From: a phage
Sequence record: PQ724392.1
DNA: 64,000 nucleotides
Reading direction: 5' to 3' (one strand)
Shown: one piece after another, positions 39,812 through 46,837 of the stretch
Layout of the letters: every line of letters begins with the position of its first letter
How positions within the stretch are numbered: position 1 is the stretch's first letter
Position numbers and translations under genes: made by a program
Notes under the pieces: model-generated
The model's database searches: none
The model's input: the letters and a program-made list of their open reading frames with translations, nothing else
What the model was told of the DNA's origin: nothing

Positions 39812-41872
39812 CTATGAAAGGAATTTAGGAGGAATAGCTTCCAAATTAATACAATTAGCAAGAATACCAAGACCTTGATTGACTTTCTTCGTTACCCCAG
39901 AGGATGCAAACGATGCAAAGTCAACAGATTCTACTGGCTCTTCTGTTTCCTCGCCCTGATAAACGACAAGCTCACCAGTTTCCATCAACACATCACCATC
40001 ATAGATAACTGCATTTTCATCCAGTTGGTCCGTAGTCTGGATATCAGCTTCCAGCATTTTGACGTTCGCGTTTCCTTGATACGAAGCATCAGTAATTTTG
40101 GTAATCTTAACTACAGTCCCACGAGGAAGAATAACTTCCTGCTCGGATGGGTTGCCTGACAATTCCCCAGGAACAATTACGTTAATTAAGTCCGCTCCAG
40201 AAATTTTCCAACCAACATGCATCATTACGTGTTCGCGGCGTGCTTCCGGCATATCTGGTAAAACAATTTCGTCATCAGCCTGGAAAGATGTCCCATCACG
40301 ATAGTCCTGATGAACTGCAGCCATAGCAACGTTCGCCACCCAGCCACCAAAGATAATCGGTTTAAACGACGTTGATACATAGTTCCTGAAATAAAATAAT
40401 TTAGATTTCTTAATTTTATCAAATGTAGGAACGTTTAAATATTGACCACGCCAAAGAGTTGTATTAGGTGGCAACTTATGTCCAATTTCAAAGGCCGAAT
40501 CCAATTCCTTAATTGTTTCGACAACTCTGTCTAGATTTAGGAATTCAGCTTCTTCTTCATAATATTTGCCCATCAAATAATTATTAATATCGGCATAGTT
40601 TGCTCCACAATAATCTGCAATTGCTTCTCGCTGACCATAATGGAAACGGTTGTCAGTATACCCTGCTGTGAAATTAAGAGTATTTTCTGATGCTTCTTCA
40701 GCAAAGTCTTTAACTGCAACACGAATGGCGCTTGTGTATTCTTTTTCCCAGAGCGAGGCTGCATAAGTGGCTGCATCCACGTTAGGAGGAGCATCATTCA
40801 TTTTTCTTTCAATAAATGCGGCTTTGCGAAGGTTAAGAATCTCTGCGCATGATTCGGCAAAAATCTGCATCTGCTTCATACTACCAACTGGAGCACGTTT
40901 AAGTTCGCGATGCATACGGTTAAAAATTGGGTCAGAGTCTTCAACACGAATTTCTTCTTTCCAAACACCATTTGCTCGCATAGCCGTATCTGCTGCGCGC
41001 ATACGAGCCATAGTATTCGTTTCGGAAGGTCGAACAAAAATTTCCAGTTCTTCATAATCATCGATAAGTTCTGCCGTAGCCGGTCGACTAAACTTAGCAG
41101 CTTCTGCATCGATTTCGTCCCAACCTTCTGGCACGGAATCACTTGGAGCATACTGGGCTTGTGCAATAGCTCGGCGACTGATTTTAGTTTTCTGGGCAAC
41201 AGCAGCATCGGTCTTTTTGTTTGCTGCGTCAATCAGAATCTCGGCTGCAATTTCTTGTTTGGATACTTGTGCACCATTATCTTTATTGGTGAATACATCA
41301 CCAACTTTAGTTTCGACTTTTTTATATTTCTCAGGGACTGGTGGCATACCATCGACTGAAAGCAGGTCAACACCCCTTTTGTACATAATTACATAAGCGT
41401 TCTTTTTACCAAGGCCAGAAGCATTCGGAAGAACATGATAACGTCCGCTGGTTTTCATTTGAATCAGTCGATTCATAATACGAATAATAGCTTGGTCTTG
41501 TCCTTTCATCTTTTTGGATGGGAAACGGAACAAGACTACATCAGGTTTGCCTAGTTTAATGCTTTCCCAGACTGTAGTAAAAATCAAGTTAATTGCATCA
41601 AGAGGTTTTTCACCTAAACCACCCTTCAGAGGAACAGCATGGCCATGTGAAGTCCCGGATAACAGAAATACCTCGGCAATTGCATCACCGCGTTTATATT
41701 GTTTAACTGTTTCTTTGCCCGTGAATTGCATCAAACGGGCCATAAGAGAATTGGTCCCAGGAACACCGAATTGCCAAACCTGTGGGACCTTGTATTTTGG
41801 ATTCATATTAATGACAGGATAACCGAAGGTTTCGATATATTTGTCAAAGAGTTCATTTAATTGTTCAGACAT
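39812..41872 (-). CDS. alt: Alt-like ADP-ribosyltransferase (packaged RNA polymerase-modifying enzyme)
   Basis: 686 aa (T4 Alt 682 aa); position next to gp54 on the opposite strand as in T4; central segment ...KISRRAIAQAQ... recalls T4 Alt. Confidence 0.75.
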   Translation of the reverse strand: MSEQLNELFDKYIETFGYPVINMNPKYKVPQVWQFGVPGTNSLMARLMQFTGKETVKQYKRGDAIAEVFLLSGTSHGHAVPLKGGLGEKPLDAINLIFTTVWESIKLGKPDVVLFRFPSKKMKGQDQAIIRIMNRLIQMKTSGRYHVLPNASGLGKKNAYVIMYKRGVDLLSVDGMPPVPEKYKKVETKVGDVFTNKDNGAQVSKQEIAAEILIDAANKKTDAAVAQKTKISRRAIAQAQYAPSDSVPEGWDEIDAEAAKFSRPATAELIDDYEELEIFVRPSETNTMARMRAADTAMRANGVWKEEIRVEDSDPIFNRMHRELKRAPVGSMKQMQIFAESCAEILNLRKAAFIERKMNDAPPNVDAATYAASLWEKEYTSAIRVAVKDFAEEASENTLNFTAGYTDNRFHYGQREAIADYCGANYADINNYLMGKYYEEEAEFLNLDRVVETIKELDSAFEIGHKLPPNTTLWRGQYLNVPTFDKIKKSKLFYFRNYVSTSFKPIIFGGWVANVAMAAVHQDYRDGTSFQADDEIVLPDMPEARREHVMMHVGWKISGADLINVIVPGELSGNPSEQEVILPRGTVVKITKITDASYQGNANVKMLEADIQTTDQLDENAVIYDGDVLMETGELVVYQGEETEEPVESVDFASFASSGVTKKVNQGLGILANCINLEAIPPKFLS

Positions 41873-41906
41873 AATAGGTTCCTTATAAAATATGATGTAT
41901 TTATAC

Positions 41907-41929
41907 TAAAAAAGGGCCGAAGCCCTTTT
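41907..41929 (-). terminator. Terminator between alt and gp30
   Basis: GGGCCGAAGCCC hairpin flanked by A- and T-runs. Confidence 0.6.
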
Positions 41930-41930
41930 G

Positions 41931-43463
41931 TTATTTTAACCCGGTCTTTGACCAGTCGCCAAATACATCTTCGAATGTGTCTGCATGGTCTTTATCGAAA
42001 CGGAACCCTTTAATAATCGGCAGGAACAATGCAACCGTATTATCTTTACGAGTCTCGGAAGTCAACCAACCATTACATTCACAGTCGGCAATCATTCCAA
42101 CCAATTCACCTTTACGTGCTTTAACCATCAAGGCTTCACGGTCCATTTCATGACGCTCCTCAATCGGAATAGTAACCCATTTTTTGGTTTTCTTATCTTT
42201 GACTTGAGTTGTGTCTTTAAAACCAGAACCACAGTTATTTGTAATCTTACCACAAGAAGAACGAAGCACCACACCGCCAATCTTATTCGGGTCTTTATCG
42301 TGCTCGTAATATCCAATGATTTCCATTGCAATGTCAATTACTTCTTTGAACTTATACAGGTTCTTTGAGCGCTTGTTTTCCCAAATCGATGCCATGTTCT
42401 TAAGGATAATACCTTCAAGGCCTTCATCCACGTATTTCTTATAGATAACTTTCGCTTCATCAAGATTGTTAACAACATGGTTTTCAATCAGAATCATGCG
42501 GTCAAAACCATGCAGCACCACGTTATCTGCAATCATTTTTTCCAGAACAGCAAAACGCACATCGTATTTCAACGGATTGAGAATCTTAACATCAGAATAG
42601 ACTTCAATCAGCGGAACATAATCCCAAACCTGGAATTTCATACAAGAAGCTTCTGCTGCAGAAATAGTTCCTTTCAATGATTTGTTTGCCATACCATTTG
42701 AAAAGGTTCTTGATTCAGCAGTTTCTTTTGCAGGAGCAATCTCATCTGAATCGTCAAAAAGGAAGCCCAAACCGTCATTCTGGGGAGCTATTTTCTGTTC
42801 ATGGTATACTAACTCGCCATCAATTAAAACGCCCTCAGGATGTCTCTCACGCGCTTCACGGGTGGCTTCAATCAATTCCTTTTTAAGGAGGTCAAGCTTG
42901 AGGTACTCATTTCCGGCTCGGGATAACAATCGAACATCATCCAACTCATCGCCGCGAACTTCTGCAAAACACCGAGCGCCATCGGCTTTCAATTGTGCAA
43001 AGGCCGGGAACTTAATGTTCTTAGCAATACCAGCTTCATCATAAGAAGAAGCGAGCATCTGCGGTTGTTCAGGAATTAAACCTTTCCAAACCTTATTCGC
43101 AATCGATACAGATGCGCCACATTCCAGGTCACGCATCATCACACGCCGCAAGACTTCAACATCGGCCTTTTTACCATCTGCAATATAACCAGATAATTCC
43201 TCGATTGCCGCATTACCTGTTAATTTGCGAGAGGCTAATGTGAATTCGATAAAGTCAAGCATATCATCGATATTCAACATACCAAAGCTTTGAGTCGTTG
43301 CCCCAGGTTTTGGCCATTTCTTTATATAGAACTGGATGCCTTTGGAATATGTCAAACGATACACGCGTTTAAGGGTTTCATTATCAGAATACGATTCCAA
43401 GATAGCTTGTTTCTCTTTAGTAGAATCGGTTGCAGCAATTTCATTTAAAATATCTAAAATCAT
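41931..43463 (-). CDS. 30: ATP-dependent DNA ligase gp30
   Basis: 510 aa; near-collinear match to T4 DNA ligase, including the KADGARCF adenylation-site motif. Confidence 0.9.
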   Translation of the reverse strand: MILDILNEIAATDSTKEKQAILESYSDNETLKRVYRLTYSKGIQFYIKKWPKPGATTQSFGMLNIDDMLDFIEFTLASRKLTGNAAIEELSGYIADGKKADVEVLRRVMMRDLECGASVSIANKVWKGLIPEQPQMLASSYDEAGIAKNIKFPAFAQLKADGARCFAEVRGDELDDVRLLSRAGNEYLKLDLLKKELIEATREARERHPEGVLIDGELVYHEQKIAPQNDGLGFLFDDSDEIAPAKETAESRTFSNGMANKSLKGTISAAEASCMKFQVWDYVPLIEVYSDVKILNPLKYDVRFAVLEKMIADNVVLHGFDRMILIENHVVNNLDEAKVIYKKYVDEGLEGIILKNMASIWENKRSKNLYKFKEVIDIAMEIIGYYEHDKDPNKIGGVVLRSSCGKITNNCGSGFKDTTQVKDKKTKKWVTIPIEERHEMDREALMVKARKGELVGMIADCECNGWLTSETRKDNTVALFLPIIKGFRFDKDHADTFEDVFGDWSKTGLK

Positions 43464-43473
43464 TAATCACCTC

Positions 43474-43752
43474 TTAGTCGTTGACTCTATTATATGCCAC
43501 GTCTTCCAAAAGCAAATCCAGCCGCTTATGATAAGTGAACACAAATTTAGTTGCCCCGTCTGGTTTCATTTTGGTCATGAAGTGAATATAGATAAATCCT
43601 TGCTCAACGCATTCACGCCAAACGGGGTTATCTTTAGCCGGATTAATATCAAACGAGTAATTATGATTCACATGACGAATAAACTGATTAACATGACCGT
43701 AATCCATCGTGGTAGTTGGACCACGGTCAGAAATAGTATGAACGACAAACAT
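43474..43752 (-). CDS. Hypothetical protein (92 aa)
   Basis: Track ORF begins at TTG 43755; the ATG at 43752 overlaps the upstream stop (TGATG coupling). Confidence 0.45.
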   Translation of the reverse strand: MFVVHTISDRGPTTTMDYGHVNQFIRHVNHNYSFDINPAKDNPVWRECVEQGFIYIHFMTKMKPDGATKFVFTYHKRLDLLLEDVAYNRVND

Positions 43753-44576
43753 CAATTACCCCCTTGGCCACCGGTCGGTTGATTGTACCAGTATTCAATA
43801 CCAGTACCTACACGCTGGCCATATTGATATGGATATGCTGGATTATATCCAGGAGTCCACGGTTGACCAGGCTGCCAGCCTTGCTGCATTTGTTGTTGAA
43901 GGCGTCGAGTTTCACGAAACAGCTCTTCCAGTTTACGGAGTTCATCTGGAGTGAATTCTGGTTTGACCGGTTCATCTTTGTGTTTCAGTTTAAGCTGTCC
44001 AGCAACATCGTCCCAATTAAAAACTTTGGAAGCTGTTTTAGGAATAGCATCACGTTCGCCGCGGGCCATCCAATAAACCGGAACCTCAAGAATTTCACTC
44101 GCATGGTCGCAATGGTGTGCAAGGTCATCAATATAACAAATGACATTATATTTGTCTTTTGCCTTCTGAAACAAATCCTCTTTAGAGGCTGTATGACCAC
44201 ACATCATCACTTCTTTAAACGCCCCAGGGAACAAAGCATTCAGGTTGAATTGACGATTCAGGCGAGCATCAATAGAATCACCCAGGGCTGTAACAGCCAC
44301 AAAATCATATTGCTCTTTGAGGTTATTGATAACCCTTAATGCATCCGCATAAGGAGACAAATAGCGAATAAAGTCTGAACAGTTATATTTTTCAATTAAC
44401 TGCGCGCCTAACTCTTCATCACAATTGAAAAGTTTACCAGGGGTCACAAATTTTTCATCCTGAATCATCTTAAGGATATGTTCCAGGGGTAAATTATATT
44501 TTTGGGCGAAATAAGGTAAGCCAGACTGCCATGACAAACATACGCCATCAATATCTGTTAAAATAACGGGTTTCAT
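43752..44576 (-). CDS. HAD-superfamily hydrolase-like protein with Q/P/Y/G-rich low-complexity C-terminal tail
   Basis: N-terminal HAD motif I (VILTDIDGV) and a DD motif (YIDDLAHH); C-terminal ~50 aa rich in Q, P, G, Y, W; ATGA-coupled to the upstream NADAR-like gene. Confidence 0.55.
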   Translation of the reverse strand: MKPVILTDIDGVCLSWQSGLPYFAQKYNLPLEHILKMIQDEKFVTPGKLFNCDEELGAQLIEKYNCSDFIRYLSPYADALRVINNLKEQYDFVAVTALGDSIDARLNRQFNLNALFPGAFKEVMMCGHTASKEDLFQKAKDKYNVICYIDDLAHHCDHASEILEVPVYWMARGERDAIPKTASKVFNWDDVAGQLKLKHKDEPVKPEFTPDELRKLEELFRETRRLQQQMQQGWQPGQPWTPGYNPAYPYQYGQRVGTGIEYWYNQPTGGQGGN

Positions 44577-45031
44577 AATGCATCTCTCAATTGGTTAAGT
44601 ATGTCAATAAATTCTTGTTCAGTCAATATTGTATCATGAACAGTAAGGTGGCTCGCCATCGAATGCTTTAAAACTTTGCCTTTTGTGGATTGTAACGCGT
44701 CGCGAAACCCCCTGTTTTGGAGCGCTGCTTCAAAATATGCATTTGTATACAACTCTTTCCATGCTGCAGAGTATCTTGAAAAGGGAATTCCAAGCCAGAA
44801 AAGCGTCCCACGGTCCGCAGCTCTTGCATAAGCTCTTCCACTTTGCTGGGCGGCCAATCCGGACATCCCAAATATACGTTTTTGTTGTTCAACATTTCTC
44901 ACCTTGCACCCTTGTAGGAAGCCTTCAAGACCTCCAAACTGGATACCCTCCATAACAAAAGGCCATTTGGCAAAGTTACTTAATGCGCATGATGGCCACG
45001 GAAAATTGCTTCTTATTTCTAACTCAGACAT
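44573..45031 (-). CDS. NADAR/YbiA-like (DUF1768) domain protein, candidate ADP-ribose-processing hydrolase
   Basis: Motifs collinear with E. coli YbiA: LSNFAKWP (YbiA FSNFAAWP), GLEGFLQGCK (SEHYFQAQK), ...FRDALQSTKGKVLKHS (LRALLLATAPAKLVEH). Start placed at the internal ATG 45031 (8-nt overlap with the upstream ORF); an alternative start at 45106 would add a hydrophobic N-terminus. Confidence 0.55.
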   Translation of the reverse strand: MSELEIRSNFPWPSCALSNFAKWPFVMEGIQFGGLEGFLQGCKVRNVEQQKRIFGMSGLAAQQSGRAYARAADRGTLFWLGIPFSRYSAAWKELYTNAYFEAALQNRGFRDALQSTKGKVLKHSMASHLTVHDTILTEQEFIDILNQLRDAL

Positions 45032-45236
45032 CTTTGACACTGATAATATCCACATCAGCCCAATGACCATAACCAGGTAGACGGTCTTTAATAGATAATC
45101 CGCCATCAGATTTCAGCATTTTAATTGTTTTAGTATATGGTTCAATATTTCGGGCCCATGGACTTACATCAGTCACGCGATAAGTAACTTCGACCATTTC
45201 TGTTCCCAAAATTTTCTGAATCAGTTTCTTAAACAT
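45024..45236 (-). CDS. Hypothetical protein (70 aa)
   Basis: ORF in the coupled operon downstream of gp30. Confidence 0.4.
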   Translation of the reverse strand: MFKKLIQKILGTEMVEVTYRVTDVSPWARNIEPYTKTIKMLKSDGGLSIKDRLPGYGHWADVDIISVKDV

Positions 45237-46643: not shown

Positions 46644-46670
46644 AATAAAAAAGGGACTCCGAAGAGTCCC
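46644..46670 (-). terminator. Terminator after the 53-aa ORF, upstream of a PeSL promoter
   Basis: GGGACTC-CGAA-GAGTCCC hairpin with a T-run on the - strand. Confidence 0.6.
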
Positions 46671-46675
46671 TGAAC

Positions 46676-46837
46676 TTATGCTTTCGGCTTACCAAAGCAA
46701 GCTGCATCGGCGCGCAATACCGCACGAGCACGAGCCTGAAGTTTATCAGTCACCTGATTGATTCGCTTGTTGGACGCACGCTTGTAACCAGCGCGTTTGG
46801 AGGAGCCATCAACAACTTTAACTTCTTTCTTAGCCAT
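46676..46837 (-). CDS. Small basic protein (53 aa), manually found
   Basis: Manual translation gives MAKKEVKVVDGSSKRAGYKRASNKRINQVTDKLQARARAVLRADAACFGKPKA; followed by a rho-independent terminator on the - strand; not in the ORF track (under 60 aa). Confidence 0.35.
   Translation of the reverse strand: MAKKEVKVVDGSSKRAGYKRASNKRINQVTDKLQARARAVLRADAACFGKPKA

Follow-up and report, generated by a model that had tools for sequence, protein, structure and literature searches.

Gene 30.3 of the phage DNA described here encodes, on the evidence of its sequence, an orthologue of AdfN, the anti-DarT factor NADAR of phage T4, while the neighbouring gene 30.2 is predicted to encode an independent HAD phosphatase and the ATGA overlap that joins the two genes is read as gene packing; taken as a whole, we hold this account to be highly probable. 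In this scheme gp30.3 would be a stand-alone NADAR-fold glycohydrolase that cuts the N-glycosidic bond linking ADP-ribose to guanine, its substrate would be phage DNA modified by the host DarT1 toxin, and the removal of ADP-ribose would allow phage replication in DarTG1-carrying bacteria. The gene 30.2 product would be a separate Mg2+-dependent HAD phosphomonoesterase with a small-substrate (C1) cap, closest to the 5'(3')-(deoxy)nucleotidases and also bearing a lineage-variable disordered tail, and its most probable role in infection is to remove phosphate from a nucleotide or other small phosphorylated metabolite.

The window, meaning the whole 64,000-nucleotide stretch from record PQ724392.1, derives from a VR7-like T-even phage of the genus Gaprivervirus with close sequenced relatives at 99% identity, to judge from DNA identities in the region of 99% to Escherichia phage EAWsc9 and about 94% to VR7. 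The gene order 30.4 > 30.3 > 30.2 > 30.1 > 30 (ligase) > alt, all on the minus strand, agrees with that annotated in T4 and VR7 (Table 1). A first-pass annotation of this DNA had described a coupled pair of NADAR/YbiA-like and HAD-like genes lying downstream of the DNA ligase gene. Both ORFs are present where it put them (45031 to 44573 and 44576 to 43752), but on the minus strand 30.3 and 30.2 stand upstream of the ligase in the direction of transcription, the ligase gene following 30.2/30.1 and being transcribed in the same direction. The first ORF, given as 153 aa, exists, although its product is 152 aa long and the larger figure includes the stop codon. An extended 30.3 ORF of 177 aa, starting from an ATG at 45106, was rejected, as T4 and VR7 annotate 152 aa and both the homologues and the Pfam match start at MSELEI. 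The Alt ADP-ribosyltransferase said to share the window is encoded there, with 35% identity to T4 Alt over its full length (686 aa, E 4e-127); this co-location is ordinary T4 synteny, and T4-like NADARs were already described as early genes close to ARTs (PMC9503650). A promoter and terminator scan gave counts not over shuffled expectation, with two hairpins noted.

Table 1. Features of the alt to 30.3 region, in coordinates of the window.
Feature	Coordinates	Strand	Basis
Gene alt, protein ADP-ribosyltransferase	39812..41872	-	similarity to T4 Alt; VR7 annotation
Gene 30, ATP-dependent DNA ligase	41931..43463	-	PF01068 E 2.2e-28; 70% identity to T4 gp30
Gene 30.1 (DUF3045)	43474..43752	-	PF11243 E 3.6e-18; VR7 and T4 annotation
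Gene 30.2, whole ORF, 274 aa	43752-44576	-	ORF
Gene 30.2, C-terminal tail, residues 196-274 plus stop	43752..43991	-	AF2 model
Gene 30.2, N-terminal domain, residues 1-195, predicted HAD-superfamily phosphatase fold with helical C1-type cap	43992..44576	-	
ATGA overlap, 30.3 stop (TGA) / 30.2 start (ATG)	44573..44576	-	
GAGAGA run resembling a Shine-Dalgarno site, within the 30.3 3' end and 6 nt before the 30.2 ATG	44583..44588	-	sequence
Gene 30.3 (adfN), 152-aa predicted NADAR-fold DNA ADP-ribosylglycohydrolase	44573..45031	-	PF08010, T4 orthologue, AF2, Foldseek
8-nt overlap (ATGTCTGA), 30.4 stop / 30.3 start	45024..45031	-	sequence; same overlap annotated in T4, VR7

The motifs quoted earlier in support of a NADAR protein can all be found in gp30.3, with ALSNFAKWPF at residues 16-25, FGGLEGFLQGCK at 32-43 and LQSTKGKVLKHS at 113-124. 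Profile searches bore out the family call only by another route: PF08719 (NADAR/DUF1768) gave no match to gp30.3 at E<=0.1, whereas PF08010 (Phage_30_3) matched at E 1.3e-63 (213 bits vs a gathering cut-off of 36); NCBIfam returned nothing significant, with TIGR02464 weak at E 0.055. Precomputed PF08719 matches do occur in homologues with 34-43% identity to gp30.3 (P0021, P0030, P0070, P0084 and P0119), and a profile of the gp30.3 family finds YbiA at E 0.0087, with EGFLQ..K aligned to SEHYFQAQK. The AF2 model, with a pLDDT of 94, matches YbiA/NADAR structures only, as the first-pass call would have it; the top three Foldseek matches were YbiA 2b3w (1.7e-5), PnNADAR 8bau and GlNADAR 8bat, and no further PDB entry matched below E 0.05, or even below E=1. 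The PF08010 match, the fold and the family-profile match to YbiA point the same way, and for this reason the missing PF08719 match is not taken as refuting NADAR membership; gp30.3 is a NADAR-fold enzyme of the phage gp30.3 / AdfN(T4) clade. Across 44 homologues E36 never varies and K43 reaches a conservation of at least 90%, and gp30.3 has both. H123, in the sequence KHS, is likewise invariant in the 44 and sits in the model strand 120-122/123; the phage clade has been reported to carry a last-strand His where YbiA has Glu and DarG1 has Asp (PMC11125620). The ORF is full length and the C-terminal helix, residues 138-151, is present in the model. PADLOC models matched neither gp30.3 nor gp30.2.

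Johannesman et al., (2025; PMC11825919) described T4 gp30.3 under the name AdfN as a guanine ADP-ribosyl-DNA glycohydrolase able to overcome DarTG1 (PMC11125620, 2024; PMC11825919, 2025). AdfN alone de-ADP-ribosylates DNA in vitro (PMC11125620; PMC11825919), it strips DarT1-made ADP-ribose from DNA, and T4 resistance to DarTG1 requires it (PMC11825919; PMC11125620). The published genetics and biochemistry of the T4 protein include E36A, K43A and a C-terminal truncation (PMC11825919; PMC11125620), and the inactive RB69 allele is without the C-terminal helix, which is required for activity (PMC11825919). The gp30.3 analysed here is 85% identical to its T4 counterpart at equal length, with 23 substitutions, and given this identity, the conserved E36/K43/H123 and the retained C-terminal helix it would be expected to have anti-DarT1 activity. 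The earlier suggestion of a NADAR with a counter-defence role is thus correct but already known, since the T4 orthologue has been shown experimentally to reverse DarT1 ADP-ribosylation of DNA, both DarT relief and guanine-ADPr hydrolysis having been published for it (PMC11825919, PMC11125620). In the proposal of Iyer et al., (2022; PMC9503650), phage NADARs would work chiefly on soluble ADPr derivatives, and a YbiA-like gp30.3 directed for the most part at riboflavin intermediates or soluble ADPr-derived signals, instead of DNA adducts, could also draw on the weak TIGR02464 match. We regard this as extremely unlikely, as the T4 orthologue acts on guanine-ADPr DNA in vitro and in vivo (PMC11125620; PMC11825919) and in the last strand the clade has His where YbiA-type proteins have Glu.

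The second ORF had been called a HAD-like hydrolase, and its motifs uphold this: D8-x-D10 (motif I, within DIDGV at residues 8-12), T96 (II), K132 (III) and D150-D151 (IV) are all intact; across 52 gp30.2 homologues T96 is conserved to at least 90% and the other five residues (D8, D10, K132, D150 and D151) are invariant. The AF2 model (pLDDT 88) displays a Rossmannoid HAD core with canonical strand order, in which D8/D10 come after beta1 and D150/D151 after beta4, T96 lies at the end of beta2 and K132 stands ahead of a helix, and the C1 cap is modelled as four helices within residues 16-65. Judged by these motifs, gp30.2 is a predicted catalytically intact HAD-fold hydrolase. No Pfam or NCBIfam model matched gp30.2 over threshold; among the 52 homologues PF00702 matched weakly in 10 and PF13419 weakly in 6. 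The tail consists of a long helix (210-233) and then a low-confidence Q/P/W/Y/G-rich stretch, pLDDT 43-70 past residue 235, that ends in the conserved GTGIEYWYNQPT. It is missing or unrelated in many homologues, and a motif GIEY..N.PT in it is common to T4 and the Klebsiella/Enterobacter-type phages.

Considering what this enzyme might act on, gp30.2 itself has no NT5C (PF06941) match, with 2jao at E 0.28, and PDB searches with the single sequence and the family profile returned noise or the weak 2jao match. Weak NT5C matches appear in 8/52 close homologues (best 0.002) and stronger ones, up to 1.1e-8, in 10/34 more distant family members, while a broadened profile finds the deoxyribonucleotidase-like protein 3bwv at 2.9e-6 followed by pyrimidine and XMP nucleotidases; the link of gp30.2 to NT5C, drawn from such comparisons, is transitive. 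T5 Dmp (deoxynucleoside-5'-monophosphatase) was discarded as a candidate relative, hhalign aligning motif I alone with a probability of 1.6% and Dmp having no Pfam match. The extra regions of the distant relatives P0292, P0334, P0278 and P0237 matched no Pfam family, and a literature search found no paper discussing gp30.2. The ligase gene lies next to 30.2, just downstream, in 68/68 loci, and together with a weak PHROG match to polynucleotide kinase (E 0.0034) and a DxDGV motif resembling that of Pnkp this could point to a DNA-end 3'-phosphatase readying nicks for the adjacent ligase, comparable to the phosphatase domain of T4 polynucleotide kinase/phosphatase (Pnkp), with NADAR, HAD and ligase forming a DNA-repair module. 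However, T4-like core regions are syntenic in any case, remote relatives (PA5oct, KVP40-like) carry the gp30.2 homologue away from ligase, and by both structure and sequence gp30.2 matches better with capped small-molecule phosphatases and NT5C-type nucleotidases. The four-helix C1 cap also speaks against it; such caps in HAD enzymes generally enclose small substrates, and the phosphatase of Pnkp is capless. A role in end repair is therefore improbable, and a small-molecule phosphatase, perhaps a nucleotidase, is the reading that we keep for gp30.2.

The ATGA stop/start overlap pointed out in the first-pass annotation is present (44576-44573) and is kept in T4 and other close T-evens, as TTATGA or CTATGA, though not in the locus L016; of the Shine-Dalgarno-like run before it, AGAGA is retained in the relatives compared. 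Such overlaps chain the whole 30.6-30.1 block, the 30.1 ATG and 30.2 TGA for example sharing 1 nt (TGATG), and most genes are linked in this way here and in T4. For this reason the two-step processing pathway that the first-pass annotation had drawn from the ATGA does not follow from it, and the overlap looks like ordinary T4 gene packing with no dedicated two-enzyme pathway, its role presumably being the tight head-to-tail arrangement of the early-gene block 30.6 to 30, ensuring co-expression.

In its fullest form the pathway would have gp30.3 free ADP-ribose or else a phosphorylated derivative of ADPr, which gp30.2 would then dephosphorylate, with the coupling fixing the stoichiometry of the two proteins. 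The conservation of the ATGA and internal SD in close T-evens would suit such a scheme, as would a nucleotidase-like gp30.2 that is catalytically intact by its motifs. The two genes also share nearly all of their phage records (about 1,450-1,500) and have equal host-genus distributions, and given this near-identical distribution there may be a functional relation between them at genome level. Their linkage is another matter: 30.3 lies within 6 kb of 30.2 in 33/68 loci and not within 6 kb in 35/68, a distance of about 55-60 kb separates the two genes in no fewer than 10 complete genomes of T4-like phages, and adjacency is limited to close T-evens. Around 30.3 homologues of <80% identity, clustering of 263 flanking ORFs gave no family in >5 loci; these homologues have no conserved neighbour, and distant ones have no HAD gene beside them; in the context of one of these homologues, P0084, no HAD, Nudix or ART was seen. 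The chemistry is also unfavourable, as the NADAR product, ADP-ribose, offers a HAD phosphatase no phosphomonoester and would first need Nudix-type cleavage before any such step. To this may be added the generic nature of overlaps across the block and the ability of AdfN to de-ADP-ribosylate DNA by itself in vitro (PMC11125620; PMC11825919). The pathway is thus very unlikely, and the sequence evidence argues against, not for, a dedicated NADAR-HAD system.

A different partnership is suggested by the report that AdfN(T4) needs a further T-even factor for full activity, postulated by its authors on finding that it fails in uninfected E. coli and is poor for T5 and Bas25, yet rescues RB69 (PMC11825919). 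It is conceivable that gp30.2 is this potentiating factor, binding, stabilising or localising AdfN, perhaps via its disordered tail and possibly without catalysis: in Tevenvirinae 30.2 is the translationally coupled neighbour of 30.3, RB69-type phages retain 30.2 (L006/L009-type loci), and the tail has a short conserved motif of the kind seen in docking peptides. Most other T4-like lineages with both genes have, however, lost the adjacency, the tail and its motif are also present where 30.3 is unlinked and missing in many phages having 30.3, and more than 200 other shared T-even genes fit equally. That AdfN needs such a factor is in turn a deduction, and the Toxins paper takes the failure described above as substrate specificity (PMC11125620). 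That gp30.2 is the T-even factor required by AdfN is accordingly unlikely, and we give very little credence to the docking scheme and just as little to a wider one, in which gp30.2 would serve AdfN(T4)-type NADARs either by binding or localising them or by removing a phosphorylated by-product.

A phage NADAR reversing DarT-type guanine ADP-ribosylation was predicted bioinformatically years before its demonstration, in 2024-2025, with the T4 orthologue, and the gp30.3 found here is one further allele of the known AdfN. The putative nucleotidase-like HAD enzyme gp30.2 is present in about 1,400 sequenced T4-like phages.

Among known systems, the closest is T4 gp30.3/AdfN itself, which gp30.3 resembles in identity and length; its gene is likewise flanked by 30.4 and 30.2, which it overlaps by 8 nt and 4 nt as in T4, and E36 and K43 are kept, as are the C-terminal helix and the His typical of the phage clade; the allele in the window is Gaprivervirus-like whereas T4 is a Tequatrovirus, and none of the substitutions falls at the tested catalytic positions. 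E. coli YbiA (2b3w), the Phytophthora NADAR (8bau) and the Geobacter DarG1-type NADAR (8bat) share the fold (Foldseek prob 0.99-1.0, TM 0.5-0.68) and the same ALSNF...E..xxQ..K active-site segment at 16-18% identity, but gp30.3 has His, not Glu/Asp, in the last strand. It is also without the DarG1-type N-terminal extension and is not encoded beside a DarT. The 5'(3')-deoxyribonucleotidases of the NT5C family, PF06941 (mdN 2jao, cdN 6g2n and 3bwv), stand at about 15-20% identity to gp30.2, which differs in its extra C-terminal helix and disordered tail and in having no NT5C match of its own, while the phosphatase domain of T4 Pnkp is capless and kinase-fused, in contrast to gp30.2 with its C1 cap and lack of a kinase.

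Both open reading frames that the first-pass annotation placed within 43752-45031 are present, as is every motif it quoted from them. The 1.9-kb region shows 99% identity to Escherichia phage EAWsc9, and a group of T-even phages of the VR7 type (Gaprivervirus) matches it at 93-98%. On the minus strand the genes run 30.4, 30.3, 30.2, 30.1, 30 (DNA ligase), alt, as judged against the annotated VR7 and T4 records. Transcription thus reaches the 30.3/30.2 pair before ligase, which puts the pair upstream; its earlier description as downstream holds in plus-strand coordinates only. An Alt homologue is indeed encoded in the window, though its proximity to the pair is ordinary synteny. The 30.2 ATG is preceded, at a distance of 6 nt, by a GAGAGA run. 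A 177-codon form of the 30.3 frame, with its start at 45106, can be dismissed, because 152 codons are annotated in T4 and VR7, and the homologues and the Pfam match begin at MSELEI. According to the methods of PMC11125620, the T4 NADAR was cloned as 'residues 1-208', versus the 152 codons annotated for T4 30.3.

Features of the 30.3/30.2 region and its surroundings
Feature	Position	Strand	Details
Gene 30.3 ORF	45031->44573	-	152 codons + stop
Gene 30.2 ORF	44576->43752	-	274 codons + stop
30.3 stop/30.2 start overlap	44576-44573	-	ATGA
gp30.2 C-terminal tail	43752-43991	-	residues about 196-274
30.3' ORF	44668-44895	-	75 codons, other frame within 30.3; annotated in T4, VR7
Alt homologue	39812-41872		686 aa; 35% identity over full length
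GC-rich hairpin AAAAGGGCCGAAGCCCTTTT	41910-41929	both	in 58-nt ligase-alt gap
Strong terminator-like hairpin + T-run	46652-46671	-	after small ORF 46676-46837

The product of gene 30.3, gp30.3, is a NADAR and an orthologue of AdfN, as T4 gp30.3 is now called. Its family is PF08010 (Phage_30_3; E 1.3e-63), and PF08719, the Pfam profile proposed earlier as a check, gave no match to gp30.3 at E<=0.1. The NADAR assignment stands despite this miss because a profile of 44 gp30.3 homologues matches E. coli YbiA (2b3w; E 0.0087), laying LSNF...EGFLQ..K over YbiA FSNF...SEHYFQAQK, because PF08010 and PF08719 occur together in several homologues of 34-43% identity, and because the AlphaFold2 model (pLDDT 94) matches YbiA, a Phytophthora NADAR-ADPr complex and a Geobacter DarG1-type NADAR, with no other PDB match at E below 1.

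The HAD assignment of the second gene was also correct, although gp30.2 matches no Pfam, NCBIfam or PADLOC model significantly and is filed as unknown in PHROGs (phrog_420). Its AlphaFold2 model (pLDDT 88; above 90 to residue about 190) shows the HAD strand order, with D8-x-D10 after strand 1, T96 at the end of strand 2, K132 before a helix, D150-D151 after strand 4 and a helical cap (helices 16-65) inserted after motif I; these six residues are invariant or nearly so among 52 homologues. By model and alignment, gp30.2 is a HAD phosphatase with intact catalytic residues, probably nucleotidase-like. In an exhaustive profile search, 1,200 representative clusters scored E<=1e-3, proteins of about 200 aa for the most part; Pfam NT5C is matched by 10 of 34 sampled distant relatives (up to 1e-8), and the profile extended with distant members finds 3bwv at 2.9e-6, then pyrimidine and XMP nucleotidases. 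We conclude that gp30.2 is likely an outlying NT5C-like phosphatase, its presumed substrate being small. Some distant metagenomic relatives (P0292, 591 aa; P0334, 660 aa; P0278; P0237) join the HAD domain to long N- or C-terminal regions, in which no Pfam family was matched.

The C-terminal tail of gp30.2, in which the model has a single long helix and then a Q/P/W/Y-rich stretch of low confidence, is absent or unrelated in many homologues. In the homologue alignment it is hypervariable, P/W/Y/Q-rich and, by prediction, disordered. A terminal motif, GIEY..N.PT / G(T)GIEY(L/W)xN(Q/R)PT, is nevertheless common to several lineages (the window phage, T4 and Klebsiella/Enterobacter-type phages) and suggests a short docking peptide for a partner.

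The ATGA overlap had been read as a sign that NADAR and HAD enzymes act in a two-step pathway, which our comparisons leave unsupported. Overlapping junctions are the norm in this block: 30.6/30.5, 30.4/30.3, 30.3/30.2 and 30.2/30.1 all overlap in the window, and 13 adjacent gene pairs do so, by 1, 4 or 8 nt, in a 12-kb stretch of T4. We examined 80 viral loci that carry a homologue of 30.3 for 30.2 within 6 kb: it followed directly only in close T-evens (>=85% identity) and in one further locus, L016, there after a short gap; in five others it lay 0.7-1.3 kb away, and the remainder had none, except L079, with a 26%-identical match upstream. The neighbours of distant 30.3 homologues form no recurrent family. 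Conversely, of 68 viral loci that carry a homologue of 30.2, only 33 have 30.3 within 6 kb, and in at least 10 complete genomes about 55-60 kb separate the two. Matches by tblastn occur in 1,511 (30.3) and 1,440 (30.2) phage records, and the host-genus counts of the two sets agree. T4-like phages carry both genes as quasi-core, and their genome-level co-occurrence is therefore uninformative for or against a pathway. The chemistry also argues against a pathway, as a HAD enzyme would find no phosphomonoester on free ADP-ribose. AdfN alone, moreover, removes the DNA modification in vitro (PMC11125620, PMC11825919).

Linkage of 30.2 to ligase is much tighter than to 30.3: an ATP-dependent DNA ligase lies directly downstream, at times with 30.1 between, in 68/68 T4-like loci (L083-L150). 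Such adjacency suggests a DNA-end phosphatase working with ligase, but we disfavour this role given the C1 cap and nucleotidase affinities of gp30.2, and the remote relatives in PA5oct and a KVP40-like Vibrio phage (L154, L155) have no ligase nearby. A small-substrate, nucleotidase-like phosphatase remains our preferred reading.

The 30.3' frame is apparently not a conserved gene but a by-product of the frame for 30.3. Across relatives it diverges faster than 30.3 (identity to T4, 62% versus 85%); several phages have another codon in place of its ATG, and in one relative (L009) an internal stop interrupts it. The two hairpins may together bound a transcription unit from 30.8 to 30. The ligase-alt gap (41873-41930), occupied in T4 by the small gene alt.1, contains no minus-strand ORF >=40 aa.

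The counter-defence reading of gene 30.3 is correct but already published. T4 gp30.3 appears in lists of phage NADARs from earlier comparative work, and Iyer et al. 2022 remarked that T4-like NADARs are early genes near ARTs (PMC9503650). In vitro, the T4 protein hydrolyses ADP-ribose linked to guanine in DNA (PMC11125620), and it was renamed AdfN after genetic proof that T4 requires it for resistance to DarTG1 (PMC11825919). In uninfected cells AdfN(T4) reportedly fails to neutralise DarT1, and it is reported to help non-T-even phages just weakly, although it suffices in trans for RB69; the authors of that study propose a T-even potentiating factor (PMC11825919). As the coupled neighbour, gp30.2 is an obvious candidate, but nothing beyond adjacency in Tevenvirinae singles it out, and we consider it very improbable that it is this factor. 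The window's gp30.3, at 85% identity to T4 gp30.3, retains E36 and K43, both of which were mutated in the work on T4, and H123, the His of phage NADARs where the YbiA type has Glu and the DarG1 type Asp; it also keeps the C-terminal helix, the loss of which by frameshift inactivates the RB69 allele.
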